DNA of 64,000 nucleotides. Origin: a virus. Its lineage: Duplodnaviria > Caudoviricetes. This document shows positions 864 through 61,699 of the stretch, one piece after another. The notes under the pieces were generated by a model. It saw only the letters and a list, made by a program, of their open reading frames with translations. It searched no databases and had not been told where the DNA came from. Each line of letters begins with the position of its first letter. Positions within the stretch are counted from its first letter, which is position 1. A program made the translations under genes and the position numbers. Where the stretch lies: positions 32,001 through 96,000 of IMG/VR virus record IMGVR_UViG_3300035520_000529. One strand, written 5' to 3'.

Positions 864-902
864 TATAACATCAACTAAGAAAGAAGTGAAGTGCTTTGAA
901 TC

Positions 903-1091
903 ATGGATATTAAGGGAAATAAAAGAGCAATTTGGCTAGAACGTTATTCTTATGCGGTTGAGCGTATGACTCAAAACGCAGAAATAACAAATCAGTTAGC
1001 AGATTGTATTACTGAAAATTTTGAATCAGCTGAAGATTTTGATTTAGCTTTTCAAAAGTTTCAGCAAGAAATATATAAAAAGTATAGATAG
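903..1091 (+). CDS. Hypothetical protein
   Basis: 62-aa ORF directly downstream of the promoter. Confidence 0.6.
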   Translation: MDIKGNKRAIWLERYSYAVERMTQNAEITNQLADCITENFESAEDFDLAFQKFQQEIYKKYR

Positions 1092-1108
1092 ATAAAGAAA
1101 GGAATAAT

Positions 1109-1417: not shown

Positions 1418-1421
1418 AAAA

Positions 1422-1907: not shown

Positions 1908-1929
1908 TATTAACAGAAAAATCTAATTC

Positions 1930-1956
1930 AACTTGTACCCAACTTGGGTACAAGTT
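1930..1956. promoter_or_regulatory. Palindromic site copy 1 (candidate parS)
   Basis: Perfect 13-1-13 palindrome AACTTGTACCCAA-C-TTGGGTACAAGTT, intergenic. Confidence 0.6.
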
Positions 1957-2288
1957 AGAACCAGCATATAAAAATGCAATTAATATTTTTTTGTTAGACT
2001 CATATGGTAAAGCTTGATTTGGTTAGTAAAGAATCACATGAGACAATCTTATAAACAATACTCCGCAAGTTTTAAGATGAGTCTGTTCTCTATAGTGTTG
2101 AACCTTTACAAACCTTTCATAATAGATTTGAAAGAAGTGATTACTTTGAATGTTCTCACATTTCCAATGGTATATTTATTAGTAGTGGATTTTCACAAAG
2201 TTAATAAGGAACGCCATATAAAAATTAGTCATCCGCCGTAGCTTTTATTAACTCAGTAAGAAACTTTTTGGAAAGGATTGATTAATTT

Positions 2289-4359
2289 TTGAGTAAAGTT
2301 ATAGTAATTAAAAAAGACGGCACACAAGAATCGTTCAAGCCCGATAAGATTAGGTTAGCCGTCAAAAAGGCTAGTGATAGGGTGGTTTCAGACATTCCAG
2401 ATTGTAAGATAGAGTTTGTAATAGATTACGTTCTAAAGCATAATGACCCTAACACCAACACCTTAGAAGTTAATGAGATACACAATTTAGTAGAAAAAGC
2501 ACTCAGTGTAGTGGATGAGACTGTTGCAAATAGTTATAAAGAGTATCGCAATTACAAAAGAGATTTTGTTTCCATGATGGATGAAGTGTACAACGAATCC
2601 GAAAAGATACGTTATCTAGGGGATAGAGATAATGCTAATACTGATGCTACCATGGTTAGTACTCAAAGGAGTCTAATATATCAAAAGCTAAATAAAGAAC
2701 TCTATAAAAAGTTTTTTCTCAATAATGCTGAAAGACAAGCTATTAACGATGGTTACATATATATCCACGATATGGGAGCAAGGTTGGACTGCATTAACTG
2801 TTCACTATTCGATGTTGCCAACGTTTTAGATGGTGGTTTTGAAATGGGTAACCTATGGTATAATGAACCTAAATCTCTAGACGTAGCATTTGACGTTATT
2901 AGTGATGTTATCATCAATAGTGCAAGTTGTCAGTATGGGGGTATCACCATATGTGAAGTGGACAAACTTCTAAATAAGTATGCAGAGATGTCTTATACTA
3001 GGTACTATGATGAGTGTATAAACATTTTAAAACATGGTAATGATATTGAGTTATCTAAAGAGCAAACAGCCTATGCTAATGACTATGCTACTAAAAAAGT
3101 CTACCGAGATTTTGAACAAGGTTTTCAATCATGGGAAATGAGGTTTAATTCAGTAGGCTCTAGCCGTGGAGATTACCCCTTTATCGCCATAACAATTGGA
3201 CTAGGAACTAGTAAGTTTGAAAAGATGGCTACCGAAGTAGCATTAAAGACTAGAATGAATGGTCAAGGAGAGGACACAAAGAAAAAGATAGTATTATTTC
3301 CTAAAATATCTTTTCTTTATGATGAGGAACTTCATGGAGAGAATAAGACTAATGAAGACCTATTTAAGATAGCAATAGAATGCTCATGTAAATCAATGTA
3401 TCCCGACTATATTTCCCTTACTGGTGAGGGATATATACCATCAATATATAAGAAGTATAAAGTACCAATTAGTTTGATGGGCTGTAGAGCCAGTCTATCA
3501 CCATGGTATATAAATGGTGGTTTTACTCCTAACGATGCTGATGATAAACCAGTATACGTTGGTAGGTTTAACTGTGGTGCAATATCATTAAATTTACCTA
3601 TGATATTAGCTAAAGCACGTGAAGAAAATAAACATTTTTACGATGTTTTAGACTATTATTTAGAGATGATTAGGAGTCTTCATAAAAGGACTAAGAATTA
3701 TCTAGGAAATAAGAAAGCTTCCACAAATCCATTAGGGTTCTGTCAAGGAGGTTTCTTAGGGGGAACTCTCAATCCCGATGATAAGATTGCCCCACTACTT
3801 GAACCTATGACTTATAGTTTTGGAATCACTGCTTTGAATGAATTGAATCGATTATACAATGGTGAATCAATCTATGAAGATGGTGAGTTCCCATTGCAAG
3901 TTATGGAGTACATCAACAAAAAAGTTGAGGAATATAAAGAACAAGACCATATGTTATATGCAATATATGGTAGTCCAGCAGAAAGTTTGGCTAGTTTACA
4001 AGTTAAGCAGTTTCGCAAGAAGTATGGAATTATAGAAAATGTATCTGATAGAGAGTATGTTAGTAATAGTTTTCATTGTCACGTAACTGAGAATATTACA
4101 CCTATTGAAAAGCAAGATTCCGAATCAAGGTTTTGGAACTTATTTAATGGTGGCAAGATTCAGTATTGCAAATACCCAATTCAATACAACACAAACGGCG
4201 TAGCTACGTTGGTTAGAAGAGCAATGAAACTCGGCTTTTATGAGGGTGTCAACTTAGCATTGTCTTATTGTGATGATTGTGGTTATGAACAACTCCACAT
4301 GGATGTATGTCCGAAATGCGGTAGTGATAAGATAACAAAGATTGACAGAATGAATGGAT
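2289..4359 (+). CDS. nrdD: Anaerobic ribonucleoside-triphosphate reductase, exon 1 (spliced product ~717 aa with 5492-5574)
   Basis: N-terminal ATP-cone, YIHD...NC, MGCR, CDDCG/CPKCG Zn site. Ends at RMNG-T, just inside the glycyl-radical motif. Confidence 0.93.
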
Positions 4360-5491
4360 TAGAGCCTAGATAGTCCATGTAAAACCACCTAAATTGCGGG
4401 GAAGTCCCCAAAACCTTAGTTCGCAACAACGTAACTGGAAACGGTAAGCGTGACTGCGGTATGAGTTCAAAACTTTAGAAACCATAAAAAGTAACTAAGT
4501 CAGGGATTACCGAGTGTGCAAGTCACTCCCACGCAACGAAGCTCCTAAACCACAAGGCATGGAGAACGCTCAACGACTATAATGGTGGGATATCAAAACG
4601 CAATTTAGAAAACTCATATAAAGGAGATGTTTTTTATGAATTGCAAGAGGTCACCAAAAATTACAAAAGACCAAGAAGAACGTGTTTTAAGATTACTTGA
4701 ATCCAACAATATGAAATGTACAGACATTGCAGAATTAGTAGGAGTAACCACCAATCAAGTTTATGAGGTTAAAAAGAGATATTCTCTTTCCAATAAAATC
4801 AATAAAACTTTTAAATTTTCAGCCTTACAAGAGCAAATTTTAATATCTGGTAAACTAGGAGATGGAAACTATAAAAGTAATGGTAAGATTGGATGTTATT
4901 ACAGAGAAAGTCATGCCGAGCCTGAATTAGATTATTTAAAATGGAAAGCAGACATTTTAAAAGAATTTTTAACTCCAAAAGGTATTATAAAGGTTAAAAA
5001 CTTTAAACATGATGGCTCTTATAATGTAAATCAAACTTACTATTTCATGACTAGAACTTCTTCCAGTTTTAATAGATTTAGAGACATGAGCATTGAAGAA
5101 TGTATAGAAAGTTTAAATCAATATGGTTTAGTACTACTGCTTTTGGATGATGGATGGACAAATTTTCATAATAACAAAAATGGTTATTCATTGGGTTTAA
5201 ACATTGCTGGTGGAACTTTAACCAATTCACAATTAAACCTACTGTGTGAAAAGTTCAAGCAATACGGAATTGAAAAAGTTAATATTGTTGGAAATATTAG
5301 GTGTAATTTATCAATATCAAGTAAATATACTGAAAAAATCTTAAATATGATTTTAGAAATTATGCCTATTGAAACGGATATTATACAAAAGAAGTTTAAG
5401 TACATGGTATAATGTAGTTTTTAAATTTGTGTTTTGATATCATTGTATAGTCTACTCCCTAAAAAATACTACGAAAGTAGGGGTATTAAGG
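4360..5491 (+). ncRNA. Group I intron in nrdD
   Basis: P1 TGGAT|...GTCCA with U.G wobble. Core elements AATTGCGGGGAA, CTCAACGACTA and TATAGTCT. Terminal G at 5491. Splicing restores RMNG-Y-LGY. Confidence 0.92.
4627..5412 (+). CDS. Intron-encoded LAGLIDADG homing endonuclease with N-terminal HTH
   Basis: Motifs ILISGKLGDG and LVLLLLDDG. Flanked by inverted gatatcaaaac.../...gttttgatatc (P8 stem). Confidence 0.88.
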   Translation: MFFMNCKRSPKITKDQEERVLRLLESNNMKCTDIAELVGVTTNQVYEVKKRYSLSNKINKTFKFSALQEQILISGKLGDGNYKSNGKIGCYYRESHAEPELDYLKWKADILKEFLTPKGIIKVKNFKHDGSYNVNQTYYFMTRTSSSFNRFRDMSIEECIESLNQYGLVLLLLDDGWTNFHNNKNGYSLGLNIAGGTLTNSQLNLLCEKFKQYGIEKVNIVGNIRCNLSISSKYTEKILNMILEIMPIETDIIQKKFKYMV

Positions 5492-30757: not shown

Positions 30758-33700
30758 CTATAAGTTTTCTTTAAGTAAGGTTGTTAATTGGTCTATGAAT
30801 TGTGTAGGATTGTCAGTGGCTACTTTGTCTATATTTATAGTTAAAGTTTGTGCTACTTGTGTGGATGATTTTAACAAACCATTACTTAATGCAGACGAGT
30901 TTTTTAAATCCGTTAATGCTTCGTTAGTAACGTCTACAGAGTTCTTTAAGTTATTAACTGGTTCGGCAACAGTTGTGGTCAAACTAGTATTAAAATCTTC
31001 GGGTAGTCCTAAAATTTTATTAATGCTTTCTTGAGTTAGCTTAGTAAACTCATTAACGCTATTTGTAAGACCAGTAAGTTCATCAGTGTGAGTAGAGTTC
31101 ATTTGTTCTTCTAACGCACTGATTTGCTTATCCAAAGCTTCTTCTTGTTTGTCAATAGCATCTATTTCTTTATCTATAGCATCTTGTTGGTCTTTAAGAA
31201 CGTCTATTTGATCATCTAAGCCATCAATAATATCATTTATGCCGTCTATTTGGTCATCTAAAGCATCAATTTGGTCATCAAGAGCATCAATTTGCTTTTC
31301 AAGTTGAGCAATTTCTTCTTCTTGTAAAAGTTCATCGAGTTCTTGTTGAGCCTCCTTGATTTCATCTTTATCCGTTTCCCATTGCCAACCAAGTTCCTCA
31401 GTAAACACTCTAATAGTTTTTTGATTGAGTGCATTTTGTAATCTGATTTGTGCTTCTTGGATTTTTAAAGCACGTTCTTCCTCTTCATTCTTTTCTTCTA
31501 ATAAATCTATTTGGTCTTGGATAGCATCCTTTTGCTTTTCGATAGCTTCCTTTTGGTCTTCGATTAAGTCTATTTGGTCATTCCAATAGTCTTTCTGGTT
31601 TTCGATAGCATCAATTTCATCATCTAGGGCATCTTTTTGAGCATTCCAATATTCTTTAGTTTCTTCTAAAGCTTCTTTTTGACTTTCCAGCAGTTCCTTT
31701 TGAGCATCTAATAGACCTTTATAAACTTCTTCTTCATATTTACGATAGTCATCAAGATACTCTATCTTATTGGCATAATATTCTTGATTTAGTTCATTGA
31801 GGTACTTATAATAGTTCGCATCGTCTATAACGTTCATGTTGTGTAGATGTTCAAGGTATGCAAATTGTTCTTCAGCTTCTGCTTTGTAATAGTCAGTATC
31901 ACTGCCGTAATTACCCGTAGTAACCATAGCTAAATTATTTTTCAATAATTGTAAAGCTTGAATTTGAGCATAAATTTGTTCTGTAGCTTGTCCTCTACTA
32001 ACTATCGATTGTAAATTAACTAATTGCTCATCAATTTCTGCTTCAGCTAATTGCTTATAACTATTAGCATTTAGAGTTAGTTTACCAGTAGTCTTATCCA
32101 GTTGAATACATTGTGCATAACCACTATCTATTAACGATGTCATGGTACTTAATGATAAATAACCATTATCTTTAACTTCTTTAAAGGCATTACTCATGGT
32201 TGAAGCACTAGATTCAATGTTTTTAGTAGCTGATAAAATATCGCTAAAACTACCATTTGCAACTGAACCTACTCTACTAGACAAATCTTCCCACATAGAC
32301 AATATATACTCATTATCTTCTAATGATTGACTATTTTCGTCCAAAGCTTTAGATAATTCTTGTACTTGTTGACTAGCATAGGATTTATCAGCGGTTGAGA
32401 CTGTTGAGTCACTAAGTTTTTGCTTGTATTCATTAATAGTACTAATTAATTGTGTTTGCTCTTCTTTTAAAGAGTTTATTGCGTTTTGACTATCAACTTT
32501 ATAAGCTTCAATCTTAGCTTGTGCTAATTCCTCATACTTTTCAGTATTGATAGTTACTAAACCACTTTCTTTGTCTAGTTCAAGAATATCATCGAAATCG
32601 CTTTCTATTAGTTTAGTAATGTCCTCACTAGATAGACTTCCGCCTTTTCTAATGGTTTCCATCATCGTAGAGATTTCGCTAAATTCACTAGACAACGATG
32701 TTATCATATCTGAACCTATTTTAGTTGGACTGATTTCATCTTCAAATGATTTGTATTCTTGTTCAAGAGCATAAAGGTCAGTATTTATTTCATTAAGTGC
32801 TTCATCGTAGCCAAGGTTGTCAAACTTAACTTGTAACATTGCTTGAATAGTTGGGTTGCTTTGACTAGCAATATCTTTCAAATCACTTTCTTTAGCACGT
32901 TCCAATTCAGCCTTTTGAGTAAGTAGTGTTGCTTTTTGGTCATTGTACTTCGCTTGAATTAGTTTTTCTAAAGCTTCTCTATCTAAATTGTATACATCAG
33001 CGTTAGAATTATAATTTAAAGCTTCACTGTAACCATTGCTAATTAAAGATAGTATGGTTTCAGAAGTGAGTTTTCCTTGCTCTGACATTTCTGAATACGC
33101 ATCAGTTATTAAGTCTAAATTATCGGCTAGGGTTTCAAGCTCATCAGAACTACCACCCAATGCTTCTATTAATTCAGTAGTGGTTTGACTAATATTTTCA
33201 ATTGCACTAGATACATTGAATGTATGTTCAGACGTATCCTCACTAATATATCCAAATTCTTCTAAATATTCGATTAGATTTTCAAAAGATATTCCACAAT
33301 CATCGGCAACGCTTTGCATATATTCAAATATATTAGCGTAACTTTGAGCCTTGTTTTTGTAGTCACCAGTTTGGAAGTCTAAAACAATTTCCGATGCTGT
33401 AGCAGTGCCTATTAACTTATTAAGGTCAATCTTAGAGAAAATATTTTCAATCTTAGTCTTGATAACATCTTCGTTAAAGTTAGTTAAAAATCCATCAAAC
33501 CACGATTCTACTGTATCAGAAAGACCTTTAGTTTCAATACCTGTAATAGTATCTTTTAAGCTATTTAGTACATCTGACTTAGACATCAGCATATTATAAA
33601 GGCTTTCAATTTCTTCATAAGTAGATGTTGCCTTTTCAGTTTCACCATTGGCTATATAATCATTGTATTCACTAATTAAACTTTCAACACTACTTTTCCA

Positions 33701-35561
33701 TTCGGAAAGAGTTTTACCATCTATATCATCGGTTGAGTAGTCTACAAAACTATCCAAGAATGATGAAATTGTAGTTTCATAATCGTCATATGTGTCCGAG
33801 GAATATTTGGAAATTTTCTTCTGTATAGTAGTTAAAACTTTACTAACGTCTTCACCAGTTTGAGTACCATATGCCTTAACATCATCGTAGGCTTTTTGTA
33901 AGTCCTTTTTATATTGATATATAGAACCATCATTGGTAATACCATATGTATACGTCATGCTTAAATCATTAAGAGATTCTGCTTTAAACCCATTGTTTTT
34001 CAAGATATTACTAACTTCAGTAGAGAAATTATTTCTACGGAGTGAGATTGATGTGGAACTAAAAATTTTAGATGGGTCATACATCTTTTGGTAAGCAGTT
34101 TGAATATCCTTAGAATTTTCTTGCACAAACTTTGAACTTTCTAGAGCAGATATTTCTTGAAGTTTTTCCAATTGCTCATCAAGTTTACCATTAACTAAGT
34201 CTACACCATCTGCTTGTGTTCCGTAAGTATCTATTAAAGTTTGTTGTAATTCTAATAATTGCTTATTTGTATCGACTAAGTTTTCAGTGTCTCCACTATT
34301 AGCATAGTCTTCTTGTGCTTCTTTTAATTCTTTCAAGTTGGAAATATTTTCTTCAAGTTCGTCATTAAAAGTTTTAAGATTACTACTAGCTTCAATAGTT
34401 TCATCGCTGACCTTACCCAATCCCTTAGCCCAACTAACCAAAGTTGATACTATATGTGAAATAGCATATGAAAACAATCCGCCAACCACAGCATTTAATA
34501 TACCCGATACTACACTTAATGCAACTGTTCCTAATTTTGCAACAGCAAGTTTAGTTGCATAGCCTACTAAACCAACTTGTGCTTTATTTAAACTTTGTAG
34601 CTGTTCTGCTAATTTAGGATTTGATAATGCCAAAGTATTTAAAAATTCTTTCTGCGTATCATTTGCAACGTTAAGTTTCAAAGAATTTTCGTCAGCCAGT
34701 TTATTGTATTCACTTAATGCAGTTAACGTACCAGATAGCCCTTTGCCATAATTAGATGTCTGTAGAAATTCCATGTAAGTTTGGTTGGTTGCTTGAGCAT
34801 TTATTTTGGCTCTTGTTGCAAGATAATTTTCTAAGACAGTATTGGCGTTAGAAACCTCTTTTATGTACTTTGACATATCTCCATTGTTTTTAAGCGTATT
34901 ATTATAGTTAGTAATGGCTTGTTTATAATCCTTAGTATTAATAATCGATGCACTATCCATTGAACTTGACAAATTAGAACTAATAAATTTACTTGACGTT
35001 AAAGATTTACTTACAAGCGTGTCAAATTTTTTGAACAATGTACTTAGTGCGTTACCTATATTTTTGATAAAGGATGTGTTTAAAGTTTTGGTTATTATCT
35101 CCACAGAACTAGTAACATTTTTTAGAGAAACGTTATTTATGTTATTAAAGCCATTTTGAATTTGGCTAATCTTGTCGCTATAATTATTCAAAGGTGTTGA
35201 ACTTTTCTTAATGTTCTTAAAAAACTCATCAGTAAATCCTAAAGTACCAAATTTTTTATTCATTAGTCCATAAGCACTACCTATACTAGCAATTAGTACT
35301 GGAATTGCTCCAAATAAATCTACAAGTCGGTTAGCTTTGTTGATGAGTTGGTTTATGCCGTCTAAAAAGTCTTTTATAAACTCTGTATCGAATGTTGTAG
35401 TGGATATTTCTTGTGCAGATGCTTTAATAACATTTACTTTACCCTCAATGCTATCTACATATTTTTGGTTTTCTGTTTCAGCAGAACCCTCAGCATTGTT
35501 TGCAACTTCCAATGCTTTTTCAACTTGTGACCAGTTTGAGAGTAATGCTGATACTTGGTTT
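30758..35561 (-). CDS. Tape measure protein, exon 3
   Basis: Frame extends upstream of the called start to NQVSALLSNWSQVEKALEVANNAEGSA, which continues exon 2's ...AGKNRA. Long helical/coiled-coil protein. Confidence 0.88.
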
Positions 35562-35646
35562 CATTTATATTTAGCGAGTTCGTTAGGCTCACTTGATTTT
35601 AGTTAATAATAGTGAGAGTTGAAGCCTTACAACTCTCGCTTGTGTT

Positions 35647-38184
35647 TTAGTCTAAATATGTAACTTTCTTGCAACCATCGAAAGCATCTTTTACGATTGT
35701 TTTAACTGTTTTAGGTACTTCTATTTCTAGATTTGTGCATCCTTTAAAAGAACCGCTTTGTATTGATTGTACACTATTGGGAATTGTTAGTTTTTGTAAC
35801 GATTTACAATTATGAAATGCATATTTACCGATAAGTTTCACATTTTCTCCGATGGTGACTTTTTCTAGGTTAGTACAGTCTTCAAAAGTACTTATACCAA
35901 TGCGAGTTACTTTATTTGGAATTTCTATTTCCGTTAAACTTTTACAAGCCCTAAATGCTTCGCTGTATATTTCTTTAATGTTTTTTGGTAAATTTACTTT
36001 TTCTAAGCTAATGCAATCTTTAAAAGCATGTGCACTAATACGAGTTACAGAATTAGGAATATCTATTTTTTTTAAATTTTTACATTCCGCAAAACATCTG
36101 CTACTTATACTTTTAATATTTTTTGGTAAAATTATTTCTTCTAAATTACAACAACCACCAAAGGCAACATATCCAATACTTGTTACAGAATTAGGAATAT
36201 TTATTTCTTTTAAATTTTTACAACCATAAAACATTGCTCTGTTTATATTTTTAAGGTTTTGTGGCAGAGTTATTTTTTCTAAATTAGTACAGCCACTGAA
36301 CGTTACTCTGTTTATATTTTTTATGTTTTTTGGTAGAGTTATTTCTTTCAAATTAGTACAATTGCTAAAACTCCAATCACTAATGCAAGTTACAGTACTA
36401 GGAATCTCTATTTCTTTTAAACTTTCACAACCACTAAAGGCTTCACTGTGTATTGCTTTGATACTTTTTGGCAAATTTATTTTTTCTAAGTTACTACATC
36501 CACTGAAAGCTTTTTCTCCAATCGTGGTTACTGTATTAGGAATCTCTATTTTCTTTAAAGTTTCACAATAACAAAATGCTTCATTGCATATTTTTTTAAG
36601 GTTTTGTGGTAGAGTTATTTCTTCTAAATTAGTACAACCATAAAAAACACTTTCTTCAATACTGCTTACAGCATTAGGAATGTTTATTTTCTTTAAACTT
36701 TTACAGTTAGAAAAAGCTTTGGTATATATACTTTTAAGGTTCTGTGGTAAAGTAATTTCTTTTAAGTTACTACATCCACTAAAAACACTTTCTCCAATTG
36801 TGGTTACTGTGTTTGGAATTTCTACTTCCTCTAAAGTTTCACAATTTCTAAAAAGTCCATTGTTAAAGATTTTGATGTTTTTCGGTAAAGTGATTTCTTC
36901 TAAATTAGCACAACCATCAAAAGCATATTTGCCAACACTTTTAACACTATCTAGAAGTACCATCTTTATTATATTAATACAATTTCTAAAAGCATTATCT
37001 CCTATACACTTTATATCCTTTGAAACTATTATTCCCTCTAAATCTACTTTTTGAGGACACTTTATGATAGTACTGTCACATTTATTAATTAACGCTCCTT
37101 GCGAATCATAATACTTTTTATTGTTTTTATCCACAGATATTGTTTTTAAATTATCGCAATCATTGAAAGCATTTGAATCAATATGCATTACACTGCTAGG
37201 TATAGTTATTTTTTCTAGACTAGTACATTCTTTAAAATCGGATGCGTCGATAGAAACTACACCATGTGGAATAGTTAACTTGATTAGACTTGAACACCCA
37301 CTGAAACTAATCTTTTCAGTATTTACTAACGATTTAGGAAATATTATTTCTTTTATAGTGGAACAGTCTACAAAAGCGTTAGGGTGTATATTACATATAT
37401 TGTTTGGTATTGTTAATATACTTTCACACCCTTTATATTTGTAAAGAACATTGCCTAGCACAATTAAATCATTTGGATAATCTCTTATGAATGGTGTATT
37501 TTCAAAGGCATTATATCCAATAAAAATAACAGTATTTGGAATAATTATGTTGCTTAAACTTGTACAATTCTTAAAAGCATCTTCTTCAATAAATTTAACA
37601 CCATTAGGAATTGTTATGCTCTCTAAGTTTATACAATTGCTAAAAGCACCCTTATCGATGGAGACAACGCTACTTGGAATAGTTATGCTTTTTAAAGCTG
37701 TACATCTACCAAAAACACCATCTCCTATAGAGGTAACATTATTAGGAATACTTATATTAGTTAAATTTGTGCACTCGTGAAAAACATATTTACCTATAAA
37801 GGCAACACTATTAGGAATAGTTACACTAGTTAAATTTATGCAACCATCAAAAACATTATCTCCAATGGTGATAACTCCATTTGGAATAGTTACATTAGTT
37901 AAGTTTGTACAACCTTTAAAAGCACACTCTCCAATAGATGTAACACTATTAGGAATAGTTATATTGGTTAAGCATGTGTAATTTTTAAAAGCACTACTTC
38001 CAATAGACTTAACACCATTAGGAATAAATATACTACGAATTTTTTGATTTCTCCATGAGAAGTCAGAACCACAAAATGCATAATCTCCAATAGATGTAAC
38101 CCCATCGGGTATTACAACGTTGACTTCAGTTCCATTGTAATGTTCTAAAATACCATCTACAATTACAAAATCTTCACTTGCCAT
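35647..38184 (-). CDS. Intron-encoded BspA-type leucine-rich-repeat (LRR_5) protein, no signal peptide
   Basis: About 30 repeats of IPNxVxxIxxxAFxxCxxL. SD GAAAGG. Confidence 0.92.
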   Translation of the reverse strand: MASEDFVIVDGILEHYNGTEVNVVIPDGVTSIGDYAFCGSDFSWRNQKIRSIFIPNGVKSIGSSAFKNYTCLTNITIPNSVTSIGECAFKGCTNLTNVTIPNGVITIGDNVFDGCINLTSVTIPNSVAFIGKYVFHECTNLTNISIPNNVTSIGDGVFGRCTALKSITIPSSVVSIDKGAFSNCINLESITIPNGVKFIEEDAFKNCTSLSNIIIPNTVIFIGYNAFENTPFIRDYPNDLIVLGNVLYKYKGCESILTIPNNICNIHPNAFVDCSTIKEIIFPKSLVNTEKISFSGCSSLIKLTIPHGVVSIDASDFKECTSLEKITIPSSVMHIDSNAFNDCDNLKTISVDKNNKKYYDSQGALINKCDSTIIKCPQKVDLEGIIVSKDIKCIGDNAFRNCINIIKMVLLDSVKSVGKYAFDGCANLEEITLPKNIKIFNNGLFRNCETLEEVEIPNTVTTIGESVFSGCSNLKEITLPQNLKSIYTKAFSNCKSLKKINIPNAVSSIEESVFYGCTNLEEITLPQNLKKICNEAFCYCETLKKIEIPNTVTTIGEKAFSGCSNLEKINLPKSIKAIHSEAFSGCESLKEIEIPSTVTCISDWSFSNCTNLKEITLPKNIKNINRVTFSGCTNLEKITLPQNLKNINRAMFYGCKNLKEINIPNSVTSIGYVAFGGCCNLEEIILPKNIKSISSRCFAECKNLKKIDIPNSVTRISAHAFKDCISLEKVNLPKNIKEIYSEAFRACKSLTEIEIPNKVTRIGISTFEDCTNLEKVTIGENVKLIGKYAFHNCKSLQKLTIPNSVQSIQSGSFKGCTNLEIEVPKTVKTIVKDAFDGCKKVTYLD

Positions 38185-38220
38185 AACATCAAGACCTTTC
38201 TACAATAATTTGTTAGGTAT

Positions 38221-38249
38221 ATTATAGCAAATGTTTTGTGAAAAGTCAA
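38221..38249 (-). promoter_or_regulatory. Sigma-A promoter for the intronic LRR gene
   Basis: TTGACT (38249-38244), 17-nt spacer, TG-extended TATAAT (38226-38221). Confidence 0.82.
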
Positions 38250-38431
38250 TATAAATCGTTTGCTTTTATTCGATATTTTAACTAAAATCACTCATGCTTT
38301 CACATGAGATTAGACTATTTCTTCACCCTCACCATTATGTGTTAGGGGCATACCTTTTCCGTTTAAGAGGTTTTCACTCACTCACTTGAGCCGTACTCCT
38401 ATTGACACAATTCTGTCTATTGTGTCCTATG

Positions 38432-38612
38432 GGATAGCCGTTGAAGTTTCTCCGTGCCTTTCGGTTTAGGAGCTTACCTGCATGAACAACCATTGTTATC
38501 GGTTATTTAGGATTTAACCATGTAACCATCCTTACGTTGTTTCTACTTTCGTACCATCGTAGCGTGATTTCTCCGCTACTGTGGTGTAAGGCTTTAGGTA
38601 TTACCTGCAATT
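38432..38612. repeat. Direct repeat copy A (intron core), 180/181 identical to 41612-41792
   Basis: Direct sequence comparison. Single mismatch 38575 G vs 41755 A. Confidence 0.95.
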
Positions 38613-38660
38613 AGATATGTATGTTATGCACATTTCTGTACATAAGGGTAAATTAAGTTT

Positions 38661-39434
38661 GCCCTATTCTTACCTGCAATTTTTTCAAGTAATCCAGCTT
38701 GATTTATGTCGGATAAATCATCCCAAACGTTAGCAATTTCTCGCATAATTTCATAGGTTGATTTATATGTGTTACTATCTTTCATGATGTCTATACCCGA
38801 CAAAGCTTTAATATCTTCTCTCATTTTGGAAGTGGTTTCAGCCATACCCTCAGTATCTTCGCCCATTTCCTCAACTTCTACCTTGCTAGAGCGTAACCTC
38901 ATGGATAGCGTTTTTAATGCGTTACCCATACTGTTGGCATCTTGGGTTATTTCAGTACCACCAGTTATCATTGCTATAGATTCGTTTAAACTATTTCCTG
39001 CTACCGCTAAAGCACTAGCACTTTGTGTTAAACCCTCGCCAATATCAGAGGAACTTAACGCAAACTTATTACCTACATCGTTGAACGCATCCACGATACT
39101 AATGCTATCCTCAGCTTCAACGTTAAAAGCTTTCATAGCAGTTACAAGGTCACTAGTAGCAGTATCAATGTCAATGAAGCCTACATTAGAATACATAGTT
39201 GCAATATTACCTAATGTTGTAGCTTCGTCTAGAGTGTAACCTAGTCTACTAAATGACGATACTGCATCAATAACGTCTGTAACAGTACTAGCTAACTCTT
39301 TAGCACTACTAGTAGCAGTAGTTAAAAACTTATCATAAGTATCACTGGTTTCGGAAGTAACACGTTTTAAGGTTACCATCGAAGTATCGACTTCTTCAAC
39401 AGTAGTTAACATTTCTTTGAAATAACTTATTACT
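38661..39434 (-). CDS. Tape measure protein, exon 2 (conserved core domain)
   Basis: RVISYFKEMLTTVEEVD...FSRLGY...GNALKTLSMRL...IAGKNRA is typical TMP core. 774 nt. Confidence 0.9.
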
Positions 39435-39612
39435 CTGATATATAAACTTTATAATTATTTATAAACACTCAAAAAATTATAAGATTATTTCCTTATTCAA
39501 CGTGTCCGCTTTGGATTGTATTTCTACAATCTACTCACGCTTGTATGACACTCCAAAGGCGTAAATTCGGCGTTATCAACACCTACATATTAGCATAATC
39601 TTGATATTGACT
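39435..39612 (-). ncRNA. Putative TnpB omegaRNA scaffold / right end
   Basis: Region downstream of tnpB shares blocks with 59569-59760 (ccttattcaacgtgtccgcttt; tgacactccaaaggc). Confidence 0.6.
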
Positions 39613-40761
39613 CTATGCTAATTGATAGTTTGCTAAATTAATACTAGCGTTCTTATCTCTATCCAAAGTGAAACCACACACATCACAGTGGTATGTTCTA
39701 TCCTTGAGTTTCAAATCTTTCTTGACGTTTCCACATTGAGAACACCTTTTGCTTGATGGATAGAACCTATCAGCTTGAATAAATCTAATTCCGTACTTTT
39801 CGGACTTGTACTTCATAAGGCTAATAAACTGATAGAACCCCTGTTCTGCTATGGCTTTTGAAAGATGTTTGTTTTTCAACATACCTGTGACGTTTAAGTC
39901 TTCCATAACTATTCTCGATGGCTTGGTTTTCGCAATCGCATTAGTTACTTGGTGGTTGTGATTTAGACGGATGTTCTTTAACTTTTCGTGGATAAGCTTG
40001 ATTATTCGCTCTAGTTTCAAGATGTTTTGAGTCTTAACATACCTCTTGCCTTGGCGGTTCTTCTCATATTTCCTCGAAACTTGACGTTGCAATCTTCTAA
40101 GTCTCTTTTTCAACTTTCTAATCTTTTGAGTTTTGTTGATATTTCTAAAAGGACTATCGAAATTACTAACAGTCGCGAGTTCCTTGATGCCTAAGTCAAT
40201 GCCTACAGATAAGTTCTCATCCAGTTCTAAAGGTTGGTTTTCACACTCAATACCTAAAGACAAGTACCAGTATCGTCCATTGAATTTTATTCTTGGATTG
40301 CATACTGATATTTTATCTTTCTTGTAATTGCCTTGAGGTAGCCTATTTTCGTCATTCATCTTGACTACACCAATCTTTTCAAGCTGTATTTGACTATCCG
40401 TAACTTTAAATTTAGTTGGTAAGTGATAGAAAGATATAGTGCTTCTCTTCTTGGACTTATGTCTAGGATACTTGGCAACTTTCTTAAAGAACTTACTTCT
40501 AGCATCGTCAAAGTCTTTAATGGCTTGTTGAGGTATCTCCGAGGAGACTTCTTTAAGCCATGGGTACTTGTTAGAGTTCCTAATCTTAGTGAAGTGCTTT
40601 CGCATAGTACCAACGCTTACAGATTTTCCGTATAGTTTGTAATAGGTTTCGAAAAATCCTAACGCCCAGTTGTACGCAAATCGCATAACACCTGCTGATT
40701 TCCACATTAAAGTCTCTTGCTCTTTCGTTGGATAGAGTTTGACTTTTATGCCTTTAATCAT
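39613..40761 (-). CDS. tnpB: TnpB RNA-guided endonuclease
   Basis: GIDLG, VMEDL, FYPSSKRCSQCG...CDVCG, DRDKNA. RuvC D-E-D triad intact. Confidence 0.95.
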   Translation of the reverse strand: MIKGIKVKLYPTKEQETLMWKSAGVMRFAYNWALGFFETYYKLYGKSVSVGTMRKHFTKIRNSNKYPWLKEVSSEIPQQAIKDFDDARSKFFKKVAKYPRHKSKKRSTISFYHLPTKFKVTDSQIQLEKIGVVKMNDENRLPQGNYKKDKISVCNPRIKFNGRYWYLSLGIECENQPLELDENLSVGIDLGIKELATVSNFDSPFRNINKTQKIRKLKKRLRRLQRQVSRKYEKNRQGKRYVKTQNILKLERIIKLIHEKLKNIRLNHNHQVTNAIAKTKPSRIVMEDLNVTGMLKNKHLSKAIAEQGFYQFISLMKYKSEKYGIRFIQADRFYPSSKRCSQCGNVKKDLKLKDRTYHCDVCGFTLDRDKNASINLANYQLA

Positions 40762-41365
40762 CTTCAGACAACTCCTTAATTATCTTTTTGGTTTTATTGG
40801 CTCTTTTCCCTTGTAATCTACAACTGAACACAGTTATTATTTGGATTAAATCTTCGACAATTTCTTCTTCGTCACTTCTTTCGGTATTGTCGATTATTTC
40901 AATTTCAACACCCTTAGAAATACAAATATTTTCTATTAGTTCGTATCCAAACCTAACCAATCTATCCTTATATAGAATTACGATTTTAGAAACTTCCTCA
41001 TTTAAAACCATACTCATAAGCTTGTTCAAGCCTTTATTTTGATAATTAATTCCGCTACCTATATCCGAGATTATTGAAAACTGATAGCCTTTAGCATACA
41101 TATACATCTTGACGTTTTCAATTTGTCTATCTAAAGCTTCTTTTTGCTTTTGACTAGACACTCTACAGTAGCCTATTGTCTGCTTAGATTTTACCTTTTC
41201 ACCATTATAAATTTTAAGTTGTTCATCGGTATAATAGCGATAACCTGTCACCTCATCCACATATGCAGGTTTTAGTTTACCACTTTTATCCCAATTTCTT
41301 AAAGTTTGTTCTGTACGATTTATTAATTTAGCAAATTGTCCTATGGAATATTTTCTAATTTCCAT
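40754..41365 (-). CDS. tnpA: IS607 serine transposase
   Basis: MerR-like HTH (TLRNWD), GYCRVSS, DIGSG, YKDRLVRFG. Confidence 0.95.
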   Translation of the reverse strand: MEIRKYSIGQFAKLINRTEQTLRNWDKSGKLKPAYVDEVTGYRYYTDEQLKIYNGEKVKSKQTIGYCRVSSQKQKEALDRQIENVKMYMYAKGYQFSIISDIGSGINYQNKGLNKLMSMVLNEEVSKIVILYKDRLVRFGYELIENICISKGVEIEIIDNTERSDEEEIVEDLIQIITVFSCRLQGKRANKTKKIIKELSEDD

Positions 41366-41386
41366 GTTTTATCACCTCTTGTACTA

Positions 41387-41415
41387 ATTATAACATAAAC
41401 ATTATAATATGTCAA
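41387..41415 (-). promoter_or_regulatory. tnpA-tnpB promoter
   Basis: TTGACA, 17-nt spacer, TG-extended TATAAT. Confidence 0.75.
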
Positions 41416-41455
41416 GAGTTATTTTGAGTATTTATAAATAATTATAAAGTTTATA

Positions 41456-41884
41456 CCTTTTGCTATAGAACGCAACTTCTATAACGCTATTTCGCTCACG
41501 CTAATAGCCACTCTCTTTCGAGACGTGCAAAGACTATTTCTTCACCCTCACCATTACGTGTTAGGGGCAAACCGCTTCCACTACCATACGCTTGTAGTGT
41601 ACTCCATCTCTGGATAGCCGTTGAAGTTTCTCCGTGCCTTTCGGTTTAGGAGCTTACCTGCATGAACAACCATTGTTATCGGTTATTTAGGATTTAACCA
41701 TGTAACCATCCTTACGTTGTTTCTACTTTCGTACCATCGTAGCGTGATTTCTCCACTACTGTGGTGTAAGGCTTTAGGTATTACCTGCAATTCAATTTGT
41801 GTGCTACGCTCGTTTCCGAACGTACCCAGCTGAAAACTCTATAATTTTATATTTTTATTATAGTTAATTATAAAGTTTTCGTTA
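41456..41884 (-). ncRNA. Group I ribozyme core of intron 1
   Basis: P2 tacgttcg-GAAA-cgagcgta, P3 caaattg/cggtttg, TTCAACGGCTAT, AAGAAATAGTCT, P9/P9.1/P9.2 hairpins. Confidence 0.9.
41612..41792. repeat. Direct repeat copy B (intron core)
   Basis: 180/181 identical to 38432-38612. Confidence 0.95.
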
Positions 41885-44800
41885 CTGTAAATCATAGTGC
41901 CTAAAACTGCTTTTAAACCTATCTTTGAGAATAAGTTATCTAATTCTTGACCAACACTTTTACCAGTTTTGCCAAGTTTAGTAACTTCTGTTTTAATGCT
42001 TTCAAACCTACTTTGTAAACCTAGTAGATTTTCTTTAGTCCTATCTATGCTATTTGCTTCACTAATAATACTATCTAACTGAGACTTAAATGAATAAGTC
42101 GAACTCATTGCTTTTCCGTTTTTTGCTTGAAATTGTGTAACATCAGCTATAAGTTTAGAGTATGCACTATCTATTTTATTTTGAGAAGTTGTAAAACTTA
42201 CGCCACTTAACGCACTAGCAGATTCACTCTTTAATTTTTCAAAGTTTTCAGTACAGATTATTATATTATTGGATAAGCTTTGTAGTTGTGCACTTTGAGA
42301 TTCAAAAGTATTTTCTCCATTTTTGATACCATTTAAAATAGTTGTAAATTCTACTGTATTTTTGTTTAGTTCTTGTTGCTCTTTATTTAAAGCTTCAATA
42401 TAAGTTTTTCCAACGTAATTTTTATCACTGATGGTGGTGGTATCTTTAATAGTAGCATTTTTAGTATTCTCATTAATGCTTAATTTGTTAATTAAATTTG
42501 TAATAGTATTGTTTGTTACTGTTGCACTATTAAGTTGTGATTCATATTTTTGTAAGGTTTTAAGTTGTGAATTTATTGACTCAAATTCTTTATTTAGTTC
42601 TTCATATCTAGTAATAGCTTTTTTGGGATTGGACTTGTCTATGTTATTTAAATTAGTTTGAATTTCTTTTAGATTATTTAATAATTGAAACTTTTCTAAC
42701 GCACTAGATTTTGTGCCTAATTTGGTAGTAATTTGATTATTTAATTCACTAATTTTATCCTCAATTTTAGGTATAGCATTACTTTTAGTGCTTAATTCAG
42801 TAACACTTTTTGATACATTATCTATATTAGATTTAAAGATAGCTAGATTTTCTGTATTAATATTAGTAGGATCGTTTACTAAAGTAGCATACGTTTCTTT
42901 TAAAGATTCAAGAGAAGTTTTTATCGTATTGATATTATTAGTTAATTCAGTACCTAAACCATTTCCACCCAAATTGTTAAATTTTTCTTCAATTGTGGTA
43001 AGATTGCCACTTACCTTGTCTAATTCTTTTTTATATTTTTCAAGTTGGGTGATGTTTTGATTAATAGTATTATCGGTTATCTTGCCATAGTTTCTAGTAT
43101 AATTTTCATATCCTTTTTGATAAGCCTTTTCTAACTTAGCAATGGTTTCATCACTAAAACCATACGTTTCAGCTATGTTAGTAGTCTTTTGACTATCATT
43201 CTGTAGTTTTGCTTGAATGTATTCTAGATATTTTTTACCAGTTTCATCGAGTAAAGCTGTTTGTTCTCTAATAATAGTATTTTCGGAATTTAATTCATTT
43301 TCAACAATCTTACTTGTAGCGGATGATTGAAGTTCTAATTTTGTTTTATTTGCAAGAGCAGTGGTGATTTTTGTTATAATGTTTAGTTGCTCTTTTAACA
43401 CATTATTATTATAATTATTATTATTATAACTATTAAGTGTTTTAGTGTTTTGATTAGCGTTGCTATCAATAGCATTGCCATAATTCCTTATAGAGGGTAT
43501 GTTATAATATTGTTGATACATTGAATTTAATTTGGCAATAGTTTTTTCGCTAAGTCCATACTTGTCAGCTATATTAGAACCATTTTCGCCATTCATTAAA
43601 GTTTTAATATATTCTAAGTATATTTTACCATTTTTATTGAGCAAAGCAGTTTGTTCATCAATGACCTTATTTTCAGAAGCTAACCTTTCCTCAAATGTTT
43701 TGTCTGTGGTAGTCGATTGAAGAAGTTGCTTATTTCTATTAGAATAAGCTTTAGTGATTTCTTTAATATAACCTAATTGTGATTTAAGGTTCTCGCTATT
43801 GTTAAGTGATTCTTTACTTTGCTTTGATTGAGCGATTTGTGTTGTTTTGATATTAACAGTTAAGCCTACTTTTTTTAAAGCTTCTTCAATTGCAGTTTTA
43901 AGGTTTTCAATAGCACCTGTGGCTTCAAACGCACCTATTTTTATAGTTAAAGGATTGCTTTTATCGTTTAACTTGCCAACAACATTCTCGTTAATCTCTT
44001 TCTTAGTTAGAGGTTTGATTTGAACTGGTATCTTTAAATCAGAAACCTTTTTTTTAACTTCGTTAATTGCTTTAGTAGCACTAATAGACTTTAGATTAAG
44101 AGTAATTTTATTGTTTAGTTTTTCGCTTATAAGAGTTTTTAATTCTTTAATGTTTTGGCTATTAACTTTCAAGTTTACTTCTAATGGTACATTAGTGCTT
44201 TTTAATTTTTCACGGAGTTCCTTTAAGGCTGAACCATACGTAAACTTGCTAACTCCAACTGAAACATTAACCTTATTTAGTTTAGTTTTTAATTTATCGT
44301 TTATGCTTGATATACTATTAGATTTATTATCATATCCAAAACTTAAATTTACCTTTTGAGAATCAACGTATTTTTGTACTTGATTTAATGTATTTTGTAG
44401 CGTTTCTTCATTAAACCCATTAAACTTTAGTTGAAAATCTAACTTGTTAAGTTCATCAACAATTTTAGAATAATCTATTGTAGCATTTATATTAGAACCA
44501 TTTAAATTAATATTAATCGGATTGCTTTGTATGTTTTCTCTAATTCTAGTTAGAGCTTCAGTGATTTGGGTCTCTATGTTTTGAACGTTAGTAGTAAGTT
44601 CGATTTTTGGAACAGCATTCTTAATAGTTTCAAGTTGTTTATTAAATGTTTCTGATGAGGAAAAATTATTTTCCAAAGATATTTTTATTTTTGTATTTTC
44701 TTGAATAGATTTTAGTGCTTCATTTAATTCTTTAATTTGGTTTATAACAGTGTCATTTTCTATAGTAGTTTCACTTGTGGTTGTTTTGCCAACTTCCTCA

Positions 44801-45930
44801 TTAACTTCATTAATCTTTTTTTTTACATTTTTAATGTCATCGGAAATATTAAGTTTTAAAGTGTATCCCTTAGTATTTTTGCTCCATTTACTTAAGGTTT
44901 CATCCGCTTCCTTAATTACTGTTAAAACATCTTTTAAATCACTAGCATCTACTTCTATCTTATACTTTAGATTACCCTCTTTAATTCTTTTTAAACTTTC
45001 ACTATATGCTATGTCTGGGTTAAAATTATTAGTTAAAGAGTTAGATACAGTATCATAGTCTAATTTTACCATTTTAGTTTGTAATTCAGAAACCATTTTG
45101 GTATATTGAGACAATATTTCCTTTTTAAAGTCAGTAAAACTATTACCATACTGATTTTTTGCTTTATTCAAAAAATCATTTATCTCTGCAGAATTGTCAA
45201 ACATAGTACCCATCCACGTTTTAAATCCGCTAAAATTAGATTTAGTACCATTTTGGTATTGGTATTTTTCGATATTTTGTAATATTAGAGCTAACGCATT
45301 GGCTCGGTCTAATATCTCTTCCTGTGAGACGCTTTCCGCATTTTTGACTTCTTCTCCTGCTTTTAGAATTTTCTCACTTATACCATCACCATACAATTGG
45401 ATAGCTTTTTCAACACTAGTTTTATCTTGACTAAACTCCTCAACTAGTGCTGATGAACTTAATTTAGTCCTATCTGAAAGAGTTTCTAGAGAGGTAATTA
45501 AACCATTTATCGAAGAACTGTCGAGACTTAATTCCTTGAGCTTTGTTTTATTCAAATCACTTACATCAAATAATTTTGAGAATTTTTGTTCCTCTTTTTG
45601 AGTAAAATACATATATTCAAAATTACTTGCTTGTTCTAATAGTTTTAACGCTTCTATCAATTCCAATATTTTTTTAGTAGAAGCATCAGTATCAATTTCT
45701 GGAATTTTCAAACTATCTAAATCATCGTTTACCTTATTTTTTAATTTGTCTATTACACTTTTGAATTTAGCAGTAGCGTTTGCAAGTTCATCAGCGTTCA
45801 TATTAGGCTTAAATGTAATATCATATTTTCTTTTTGTTATGTTTATGGCATTTTCAACAATTTGATTCAAGTCTTCTTGATTAAGACCAGCACCAAATTT
45901 AATCATTGCTCCATTAGTTGATTCTGACAT
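41885..45930 (-). CDS. Tape measure protein, exon 1 (spliced product ~3207 aa)
   Basis: SD GAGGTG. Long helical protein. Exons of 4046+774+4804 nt = 9624 nt, in frame. Confidence 0.85.
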
Positions 45931-47109: not shown

Positions 47110-47550
47110 TTATTTTACTTTCTTTCTAAGTTGTCTAAGCTTTTTAAGAGTTTCGTATTCTATCCAACCACCATCACACTTTGAATAGGTTATCCAAACG
47201 TAATCAATATCGGGATATTTATACCAAAAGAGTTTCCTTTTAAGTTTAGCTACGTTATCGGGCATGCCTTTGATGTCAATAACTTTTGATGTACCATCGC
47301 TATATTCAACGTAAAAGTCGGCTATATAGGTAATAGCTTTAACAGTTTTGTTGTTCTTGTGAAATTTTGGTTGCAGTTCATAAGACTTTTGCAATTCATA
47401 GTGTGTAATGTCACCATTTTCTACACTAGGTAAAATCACATCACGATAGTATTTCATTTCTAAAACACTATCAAACACAATTCCATTGTAACTCCTTTTG
47501 GATTTGTCTTTATCCACATTGAACTTACTTCTATTAATACGAGTTTTCAT
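47110..47550 (-). CDS. DUF1064-family (PD-(D/E)xK nuclease-like) protein
   Basis: GIVFDS..E, ITYIADFYV, VIDIKG, KRKLF. Confidence 0.8.
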   Translation of the reverse strand: MKTRINRSKFNVDKDKSKRSYNGIVFDSVLEMKYYRDVILPSVENGDITHYELQKSYELQPKFHKNNKTVKAITYIADFYVEYSDGTSKVIDIKGMPDNVAKLKRKLFWYKYPDIDYVWITYSKCDGGWIEYETLKKLRQLRKKVK

Positions 47551-59562: not shown

Positions 59563-59762
59563 TAAAACCCGTTACTGAAAACTTATAAAAAGTTATAACA
59601 ACTCTTGATTAAGTTACAAAATTTATAACTTTTAGGTTTCATTCCTTATTCAACGTGTCCGCTTTGAGTTTTGTTTCCAAAACCTACTCACACTTGTGTG
59701 ACACTCCAAAGGCTTAAATTCCCGACTAACGTATCGGTACATTCGTGTAACACTTGTGTTAG

Positions 59763-60929
59763 CTATGCTACACGATAGTCTGTACAGTTTTTCAAATTCA
59801 CACTAGCTTGGAAGTCTCTATCTATGGTGTTTCCACAGACTTCACAATGATAAATTCTATCTTTAAGCTTTAGGTCTTTCTTGATGTTTCCACAACAAGA
59901 ACATATTTTACTTGATGGATAGAACCTATCAGCAACCCTTAATTCTATGTGCTTCTCTTGGCACTTATACTCTAACTGTCTATGGAACTCATAGAAGCAT
60001 TGTTCTTGGACTGCCTTAGCTAGGTGCTTATTCTTCAGCATACCCTTAACGTTCAAATCTTCCAACACTATGAACTTTGGTTCTCGGTTCACAATCTCGG
60101 TAGTGGTTTGATTCAAGTAGTTATGTCGAATGTTCGTTAATCGGTGACTTAATTTTAAAAGTTGTCTTTGACTTTTTACAACGTTACGTGTTTTACAGTA
60201 ACGTTCTCCTTTCTTATTCATTAGGTATTTTCTAGATGCCTTGCGTTGTAACCTACGCTTTTTCTTGTTTAACTTACGTACTTTCATACTTTTGTTGATG
60301 TTCTTATAAGTGTTAGCGTCTGAGCAGATAGCCAAATCTTTGACACCTAGGTCTATGCCGATTCCATCATTTTTTGGTGTAACGTAACGCTCATCACACT
60401 CAATGCCTACAGATAACCACCAGTTAAGACCGTCGAAAGTAACTCTAGGATTAGAGTACTTTGCATTTTCGGGGATTCTGTTAGGCTCTGCGAGTCGAAC
60501 CCAGTTGAAAAGTTGCTTGTTAACTTTTCTACTAGTGGTCAACTTTTCGAGTTTGACTTTACCATCTTTAAATTTAATCTTAGCGGTATCTACATAGAAA
60601 CTAGGCTTTGAATGGTGTCTGCTCTTAAACTTTGGATGCTTAGCTAAACCTTTAAAGAACTTCTCAAACGCTCCACAACAGTCAATGATAGCCTGTTTAG
60701 TAACGTTGTTGCTGTAGTCATTAATCCATTGATACTCATCTTGAGTTTTGAGTTGTGTGAAAAGTTTTCTTAAATAATAATGACTGATAAACTTTCCACC
60801 GTTCTTGTAATTTTTATTTTGGTAATCTAATGCCCAATTGTACGCAAATCTCGCAACACTTGCACTTTGAAAGAGTTTAGTCTGTTGCTTATTATTAGGA
60901 CAAAGTTGAACTTTAATAGTCTTAATCAT
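59763..60929 (-). CDS. tnpB: TnpB RNA-guided endonuclease
   Basis: GIDLG, VLEDL, FYPSSKICSCCG, DRDFQA. Confidence 0.95.
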   Translation of the reverse strand: MIKTIKVQLCPNNKQQTKLFQSASVARFAYNWALDYQNKNYKNGGKFISHYYLRKLFTQLKTQDEYQWINDYSNNVTKQAIIDCCGAFEKFFKGLAKHPKFKSRHHSKPSFYVDTAKIKFKDGKVKLEKLTTSRKVNKQLFNWVRLAEPNRIPENAKYSNPRVTFDGLNWWLSVGIECDERYVTPKNDGIGIDLGVKDLAICSDANTYKNINKSMKVRKLNKKKRRLQRKASRKYLMNKKGERYCKTRNVVKSQRQLLKLSHRLTNIRHNYLNQTTTEIVNREPKFIVLEDLNVKGMLKNKHLAKAVQEQCFYEFHRQLEYKCQEKHIELRVADRFYPSSKICSCCGNIKKDLKLKDRIYHCEVCGNTIDRDFQASVNLKNCTDYRVA

Positions 60930-61527
60930 CTTCCGTTAACTCCTTTATCATCTTCTTAGCTTTATTTGCTCGTTTACCTTGCAATTTACAGCTAAAAACG
61001 GTCACAATTTGAATTAAGTCCTCAACTAGTTCTTCTTGTTCGGTTTTTTCGGTATTATCTATCACTTCGATTTCACAGTCATACAGTTCTGCAATATATT
61101 CAATTAATTCAAATCCAAAACGTGTAAGTCTATCCTTGTACAGAACAACAACCTTTGATATACTGTGGTTTATTATACATTTTATTAAATCTTGTAATCC
61201 TTTTCTTTTGTAGTTAATACCTGAACCTATATCGAATATTATTTCAAATGGTTTACCCTGTGCAATAAGATAGGTTTGCATATTTTCTATTTGTCTTTGC
61301 AAATCATCTTTTTGTTTAATAGAACTAACTCTACAATAACCTACAGTCTTTTCAACTTTTTTGACTGGTTTGTTTAACAATTGGTTTAAATCATCTTCGG
61401 AGTAGTAACGATAACCATTAGGACTTTTATGATGTGGTTTTAATTTCCCACTTCTATCCCAATTTCTCAACGTTTGTGCAGATACTCCTAATATTTTCGT
61501 CATTTCATGTATAGTGTAATATTTCAC
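60922..61527 (-). CDS. tnpA: IS607 serine transposase
   Basis: HTH, GYCRVSS, DIGSG, YKDRLTRFG. Confidence 0.95.
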   Translation of the reverse strand: MKYYTIHEMTKILGVSAQTLRNWDRSGKLKPHHKSPNGYRYYSEDDLNQLLNKPVKKVEKTVGYCRVSSIKQKDDLQRQIENMQTYLIAQGKPFEIIFDIGSGINYKRKGLQDLIKCIINHSISKVVVLYKDRLTRFGFELIEYIAELYDCEIEVIDNTEKTEQEELVEDLIQIVTVFSCKLQGKRANKAKKMIKELTEDD

Positions 61528-61699
61528 TCAAATCACCTCTATACATAGAATAACATAATTATTTATAAAAGTCAATATACATTTATAAGTTTTTATAAGT
61601 TTTCTCTAACTGTTAAAAGCCTCCTATCCTTAGTTACATCCACCTTGGACTTTTGCAAGTATATAGTATTAGCTCAGCGACATACTCTCTTCGCCTACA

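Follow-up and report, generated by a model that had tools for sequence, protein, structure and literature searches.

Interrupted tape-measure genes and IStrons are among the closest described systems to the locus reported here. Several group I introns (IA1/IA2) occur within one tape-measure gene, as TMP-IVS1/2/3, in prophages of the Bacillus cereus group (Tourasse and Kolsto 2008, PMC2504315). Splicing of the tape-measure gene of Vibrio phage ICP1 was demonstrated by RNA sequencing and reverse transcription PCR in a study that calls this gene frequently interrupted (Barth et al. 2023, PMC10448857). The group B IStrons include BcISt1, CsISt1 and CbISt3/4 of Clostridium phage c-st (Tourasse 2014, PMC4227781), and CboIStron and CseIStron were dissected in 2023 (Zedaveinyte et al., bioRxiv 10.1101/2023.11.20.567912). 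In this group the last base of the 5' exon is G and the intron opens with U; the layout also comprises a long, AU-rich inverted-repeat stem ('IR stem') of 15-34 bp and a direct-repeat copy near the 5' end (PMC4227781). Published splicing of BcISt1, CboIStron and CseIStron spans 2-80% (PMC4227781; bioRxiv 10.1101/2023.11.20.567912). Here we analyse a 64,000-nt stretch of DNA (the window; positions 32,001 to 96,000 of the 108-kb IMG/VR virus record IMGVR_UViG_3300035520_000529), in which a tape-measure gene appears to be interrupted by both an IStron and a second, resident group I intron.

The structure of the locus very probably reflects a single late structural gene for a 3207-residue tape measure, full-length translation of which requires the removal of two group I-type introns from the transcript. 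On the minus strand, the open reading frame (ORF) list gives three long frames (41839-45930, 38624-39412 and 30758-35512), with three further ORFs between them (40754-41365, 39613-40761 and 35647-38184). A preliminary description of the window had read the long frames as exons of one gene, and its arithmetic is borne out. Exons of 4046, 774 and 4804 nt add up to 9624 nt, and translation of the joined exons yields 3207 residues with a sole, terminal stop, passing through natural text at both joints (...LGTMIY-R-VISYFKEM... and ...IAGKNRA-NQVSALLSNW...). The introns of 2450 and 3099 nt make up the anticipated total of about 5.5 kb (5549 nt), both are in phase 2 (ag/a and gc/a, the slash marking the splice site) and exon 2 is exactly 258 codons long. 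The gene opens with the ATG at 45930, which has a Shine-Dalgarno sequence, GAGGTG, 9-14 nt upstream. Open frames of 1348, 257 and 1600 codons persist in DNA of ~30% G+C, and together with homologues that are colinear without indels at both joints they exclude chance as the source of the arrangement. The predicted DNA junctions are ...TTTACAG joined to AGTAATAAG... between exons 1 and 2 and ...ATAGGGC joined to AAACCAAG... between exons 2 and 3, and the tryptic peptides predicted to span the joints are ...AVLGTMIYR and ANQVSALLSNWSQVEK, respectively. By the general rule of ~0.15 nm per residue, a tape measure of 3207 residues predicts a tail of roughly 480 nm.

Exon 2 is indeed the conserved core of the protein, as had been proposed, matching PhageMin_Tail (PF10145) in Pfam with an E-value of 5.6e-24. 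The PHROG 4211 tape-measure profile places exon 2 (profile positions 602-842) and exon 3 (862-1471) consecutively. A search with exon 2 against longer proteins gave 709 relatives, which were aligned to the joined protein and of which 120 are listed. Contiguity of homologues across the joints had been put forward beforehand as a check, and when run here it found homologues contiguous at both. Joint 1 is crossed without indels by the three closest homologues (P0001-P0003; 58, 59 and 51% identity) and by more than ten others, through ...GTM(I/V)YR(V/A)I(S/G)YFK..., and in P0002 and P0003 colinearity begins at residue 6 of exon 1 and continues through exon 2. Joint 2 is crossed in the same way by P0004-P0009 and others, through ...AGK(T/N)RANQV(S/A)ALL..., and 21 homologues hold the exon-2-like and exon-3-like parts in a single frame. 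At the DNA level, loci L004 and L070 are uninterrupted across both joints, such that colinearity at joint 1 is based on the protein sequences of P0001-P0003 and on these more distant loci. No close relative was found among GenBank phages by megablast, the best tblastn identity to named phages was 38%, and the metagenome scan gave two loci, both distant. Profile scans gave no family hits for the ORFs neighbouring the tape-measure gene, so gene order cannot be used as support for its identity.

The interruption at joint 1 is a group B (IS607-type) IStron by each of the traits of that class (Table 1). A ribozyme at the 5' end is followed by TnpA and TnpB, all in the orientation of the host gene. 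The target ends in G and the element in CAG, with the same dinucleotide at both junctions and no target duplication. A long AU-rich stem encloses the ORFs, a guide RNA scaffold lies next to the 3' splice site, and copies at different sites attest to mobility. G is the last base of the 5' exon, and the U-G pair takes its U from the first position of the intron; within P1, which like P10 was read by eye, exon CAG and intron U pair with GCUG. A third copy of the stem motif lies near the 5' end of the element at 41858-41878 (repeats D11 and I3). TnpB aligns over its full length with ISFba1 TnpB (PDB 8IAZ, E 3.9e-65), and RAGATH-18 is the guide scaffold of IS607 TnpB (PMC11061315). By analogy with the published layout (bioRxiv 10.1101/2023.11.20.567912), the first ~20 nt of exon 2 would serve as the guide.

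Two copies of the element elsewhere provide independent proof of its ends at the sequence level. The first (L003; 95.4% identical, 848-3297 on the minus strand of another viral contig) lies in a gene for DNA polymerase III alpha, where it separates the PHP domain from the polymerase (DNA_pol3_alpha) domain. The second (L004; 75.6% identical) interrupts another long frame that resembles a tape measure. Each copy is inserted in frame and in the sense direction. Homology ends exactly at the equivalent of 39435 on the 3' side and 5-8 nt upstream of 41884 on the other. This upstream limit lies within the shared target motif and in L003 falls 5 nt out (TACAG). The insertion motifs directly before the element are TACAG in the window, ATACAG in L003 and TAACAG in L004, and all three copies end in ATCAG. 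As the closest tape-measure homologues are without the IStron, its insertion in this gene is probably recent. A second IS607 element is present in the window at 59580-61640 on the minus strand (tnpA 61527-60922, tnpB 60929-59763 and RAGATH-18 59712-59642). The element is preceded by ...AACAG and closes with ...TTCAG. Compared with the IStron proteins, its TnpA shows 57% and its TnpB 47% identity, and it gave no Rfam match to a group I ribozyme.

Intron 2 belongs to a family that populates tape-measure genes. Its P1 forms between exon AGGG and a CCCU directly before a conserved P2 motif of 21 nt, which recurs in 54 IMG/VR contigs (L011-L064), in about 48 of them within a tape-measure gene. The family inserts near residues 1470, 1525-1531, 1595, 1602 and 1606 of the joined protein, and some tape-measure genes, such as those of L062 and L055, carry three introns. 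Judged from these contigs, introns cluster in the conserved tape-measure core of uncultured phages, a hot spot with at least five sites within ~140 codons. When the six bases before the motif are compared with the exon end, a P1 of at least 5 bp is found in 97% of 30 distinct contexts versus 30% of shuffles, and across these contexts the pairing is kept in at least ten different sequences. An alignment of 16 family members holds compensatory changes in 16 of the 26 predicted pairs. The read-through peptide of the window, ...YVQKCA before the stop, is also the C-terminal end of 13 of the 120 homologues listed, in most cases at the same site, which argues that the same intron family interrupts many related genes. 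The P2 motif itself (window 38644-38624) ends in TAA. Irrespective of insertion site, this triplet matches the reading phase of the host gene in 24 of 25 contexts, and an in-frame stop 10-13 codons past the 5' splice site appears to be a retained trait of the family. Several of the homologues that cross joint 2 (P0004-P0008, P0012, P0024, P0028 and P0030) end 10-25 residues past ~1716-1735 in joined-protein numbering, and their conserved tails (...MHKPENCW...YQSAA and ...PTNTLM.TWNE..A, each closed by a stop) resemble read-through products of one more conserved insertion, at a different site.

The cargo of intron 2 sets it apart from its relatives. In these, the ORFs between core and 3' splice site encode roughly 300-455 aa, some with Myb-like DNA-binding domains, and stems at the place of the cargo-enclosing stem are present with different sequence in L035 (15 bp) and L056 (14 bp). 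The window instead has a gene of BspA-type leucine-rich repeats (LRR). The best match to it in an IMG/VR search was partial and 33% identical, and the search found no relatives with an LRR gene inside an intron. An identity as a mobile intron bearing a homing endonuclease was considered and rejected, the ORF being composed of LRR_5 repeats only with no nuclease domain. A Pfam TMP_N match inside the same ORF was dismissed as weak, covering 30 residues with no passing stretch. About 1.2 kb upstream of the tape-measure gene, an ORF at 47110-47550 (minus strand) resembles DUF1064 / Holliday-junction-resolvase-like endonucleases and may be a free-standing homing-type nuclease.

Table 1. Features of the interrupted tape-measure locus, in window coordinates.
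Feature	Position	Strand	Remarks
Tape-measure exon 1	41885-45930	-	4046 nt = 1348 codons + 2 nt
Intron 1, group B (IS607-type) IStron	39435-41884	-	2450 nt; follows ...TACAG, first base T, ends ...ATCAG
IStron ribozyme, P1-P9	41509-41879	-	Rfam Intron_gpI 43.6 bits, E 6.8e-10, full model 1-253
AU-rich stem, 5' arm	41422-41455	-	34 nt, 97% complementary to 39441-39474; encloses tnpA, tnpB and guide RNA
Sigma-70 promoter ahead of tnpA	41387-41415	-	hexamers 12/12 consensus, extended -10
tnpA, IS607-type serine recombinase	40754-41365	-	MerR helix-turn-helix and Resolvase domain, catalytic motif CRVSS
tnpB, RNA-guided nuclease, IS607 clade	39613-40761	-	Pfam OrfB_IS605 and Cas12f1-like_TNB; RuvC D/E/D present
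RAGATH-18, TnpB guide RNA scaffold	39489-39559	-	Rfam 68.4 bits; 54 nt before 3' splice site
AU-rich stem, 3' arm	39441-39474	-	ends 6 nt before 3' splice site
Tape-measure exon 2	38661-39434	-	774 nt = 258 codons; carries PhageMin_Tail (PF10145) core
Intron 2, group I (IA2-like)	35562-38660	-	3099 nt; ribozyme at 5' end, cargo in enclosed loop, ends ...AAAUG
Intron 2 ribozyme	38291-38670	-	Rfam Intron_gpI (RF00028) 53.2 bits (threshold 50), full model 1-253; match starts 10 nt inside exon 2
Cargo-enclosing stem	38278-38290 paired with 35594-35606	-	perfect 13 bp
Near-consensus promoter of the LRR gene	38249-38221	-	
Cargo ORF, BspA-type leucine-rich repeats	35647-38184	-	845 aa; Pfam LRR_5 E 4.5e-289
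Weak terminator-like hairpin, weak T tail	35637-35614	-	inside intron 2, upstream of 3' splice site
Tape-measure exon 3	30758-35561	-	4804 nt = 1 nt + 1600 codons + stop

Splice registers were examined by hand within ambiguity windows of 3 nt (cag) at joint 1 and 4 nt (aaac) at joint 2. A single position in each window ends the intron in G (...ATCAG for intron 1 and ...AAATG for intron 2), which fixes the register; for intron 2, ...GGGC/AAAC...AAATG/AAAC is the only such choice. A register that would end exon 2 in U was rejected because it gives an in-frame stop, and placing the end of intron 2 at 38291, together with the end of the Rfam match, was rejected because all three downstream frames stop before the LRR start. 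The two ribozymes are close twins, 94% identical over 213 nt (38432-38644 against 41612-41824) and 92% over 49 nt. The core of intron 2 matches the IStron cores at 94% and 92.5% but its own family at no more than 87% and over shorter stretches, whereas its P1-P2 region is typical of the tape-measure intron family. This suggests that intron 2 is chimeric, the simplest reading being that the two introns exchanged ribozyme core sequence. Further matches to the intron core lie in the window at 4539-4580 on the plus strand (83% over 42 nt) and, beyond it, at genome position 101423-101488 (81% over 67 nt).

The case for two group I-type introns in one gene, as put forward in the preliminary description, is supported by the Rfam cores, by colinearity across both joints, by IStron copies in frame in other long ORFs, by intron 2 relatives in tape-measure genes whose P1 covaries with the exon, and by the lack of start signals in exons 2 and 3. 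From this anatomy, and by comparison with published related elements, both introns are presumably spliced in vivo. In our model, the late transcript would be translated through exon 1 until ribosomes stop 15 codons into the IStron, where the exon 1 frame ends. The IStron ribozyme would then fold, with the long stem drawing the 3' end near, and exons 1 and 2 would be ligated. In intron 2 the exon 2 frame stops after 12 codons, within the conserved motif, such that in both introns the host frame closes 12-15 codons past the 5' splice site and ahead of the ribozyme core. Here P1 would pair with the last bases of exon 2, and the 13-bp stem would return the 3' splice site, 2.7 kb away, to the core. 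Only the doubly spliced mRNA would yield the full tape-measure protein. It is reasonable to suppose that virion assembly depends on two ribozymes and that unspliced products cannot build a tail. The hairpin inside intron 2 might lower the yield of full-length transcript. At the DNA level, the TnpA serine recombinase is expected to move the IStron, while TnpB with its RAGATH-18 guide presumably targets the empty site, cutting the allele without the intron, in which TACAG runs directly into exon 2, so that the element is restored or spread.

Several observations weigh against a gene that depends on two functional introns. Neither 5' exon ends in the nearly universal U: exon 1 ends in G, and exon 2 in a C that faces A in P1 (G in relatives), a rare but documented exception (PMC4227781). 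Intron 1 scores 43.6 bits in Rfam, below the gathering threshold of 50, and the terminator-like hairpin of intron 2 could cut off part of the transcripts before exon 3. Published IStron splicing efficiencies range from about 2% to 80%, one element splicing at only about 2% (bioRxiv 10.1101/2023.11.20.567912), and the record is a metagenomic virus contig estimated to be 64% complete. The same observations would fit a broken tape-measure gene, in which one or both insertions splice poorly or not at all, carried by a defective phage or decaying prophage. We consider this improbable, since 9.6 kb of exon sequence holds no stop or frameshift in AT-rich DNA and both cores match the full model and stay close to family members. 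The same IStron also lies in frame in two other long, probably essential genes, and for group B IStrons that splice, G at the end of the 5' exon is the rule in the literature (PMC4227781).

A gene in pieces, with three frames translated separately and fragments that assemble without RNA splicing, would recall the split essential nrd genes of phages, which are known to work as fragments according to literature cited in PMC10448857. Here it is very unlikely, because exons 2 and 3 are without translation signals of their own. Neither has a Shine-Dalgarno sequence or start-codon context, and their first start codons in frame come after 7 and 16 codons of conserved sequence; moreover, the interruptions are bounded by ribozyme ends, not gene ends. 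That an assembly artefact placed mobile-element sequence in the gene, as a 213-nt core repeat in a metagenome-assembled contig might lead an assembler to do, is scarcely credible given the exact and meaningful ends of intron 1 with their shared TACAG/ATCAG core, the P1, terminal G and usual family site of intron 2, the restored frame at both insertions, and the many independent contigs whose tape-measure genes carry this intron family at the same place.

The twin cores, the shared phase 2 and the 258 codons of exon 2 together make in-frame skipping of this exon possible, and the corresponding arithmetic of the preliminary description is correct, exon 1 and exon 3 joining in frame over 8850 nt. 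Such a product would lack the PhageMin_Tail core, the only conserved domain of the tape measure, and no data here suggest that it is made. Recombination between the cores, or use of the intron 1 5' site with the intron 2 3' site, could in principle create an in-frame second form of the tape measure and possibly two tail types, a prospect that we regard as highly doubtful. A related and less doubtful reading is that the IStron TnpB and its guide may act in RNA-guided homing against the intron-free tape-measure alleles of co-infecting phages.

Read as one gene with two introns, the locus has consequences for annotation and for intron evolution. Automated annotation would give three unrelated ORFs and miss the 3207-residue tape measure, leading to errors in tail length, gene counts and phage classification alike. 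One gene that holds a transposon-type and a resident intron with nearly the same ribozyme core offers material on how IStrons acquire or exchange ribozymes, and the conserved tape-measure core in gut phages emerges as a crowded intron landing site. If TnpB does target the empty site, an RNA-guided nuclease would drive intron inheritance in phage crosses.

Set against known systems, the locus adds a clear new case to an arrangement that phages were already known to have and would not surprise a specialist. The tape-measure introns of the B. cereus group are alike in that introns at two sites have almost the same P3-P7 core (90-92% identity, against 94% in the window), with P1, P2 and P9 differing to suit each site, but those introns are short or carry remnants of homing endonucleases, whereas here a full IStron and a self-promoted LRR gene are present. 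In Vibrio phage ICP1 an essential tape-measure gene is likewise interrupted by one or more ORF-carrying introns, one isolate having two intronic ORFs. The cargo there comprises HNH endonucleases and splicing was shown, whereas the window carries a transposon and an LRR gene and its splicing is predicted. The IA2 introns of Staphylococcus phage K and Twort-like phages (lysK and related) have core segments of ~71% nucleotide similarity, but differ in host genes and have neither an insertion sequence component nor a long 3' cargo loop. The group B IStrons agree with intron 1 in 5' ribozyme, TnpA, TnpB, guide RNA at the 3' splice site, G-ending exon, AU-rich stem and a length of ~2.4 kb, and members are already known from phage genomes. 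They differ in that target and end are here ACAG and CAG rather than the usual GG and CGG, with only CsISt1 reported as AG/CAG, and in that the host gene here is a tape-measure gene whose interruption, with its predicted splicing and transposition, is read from the DNA.

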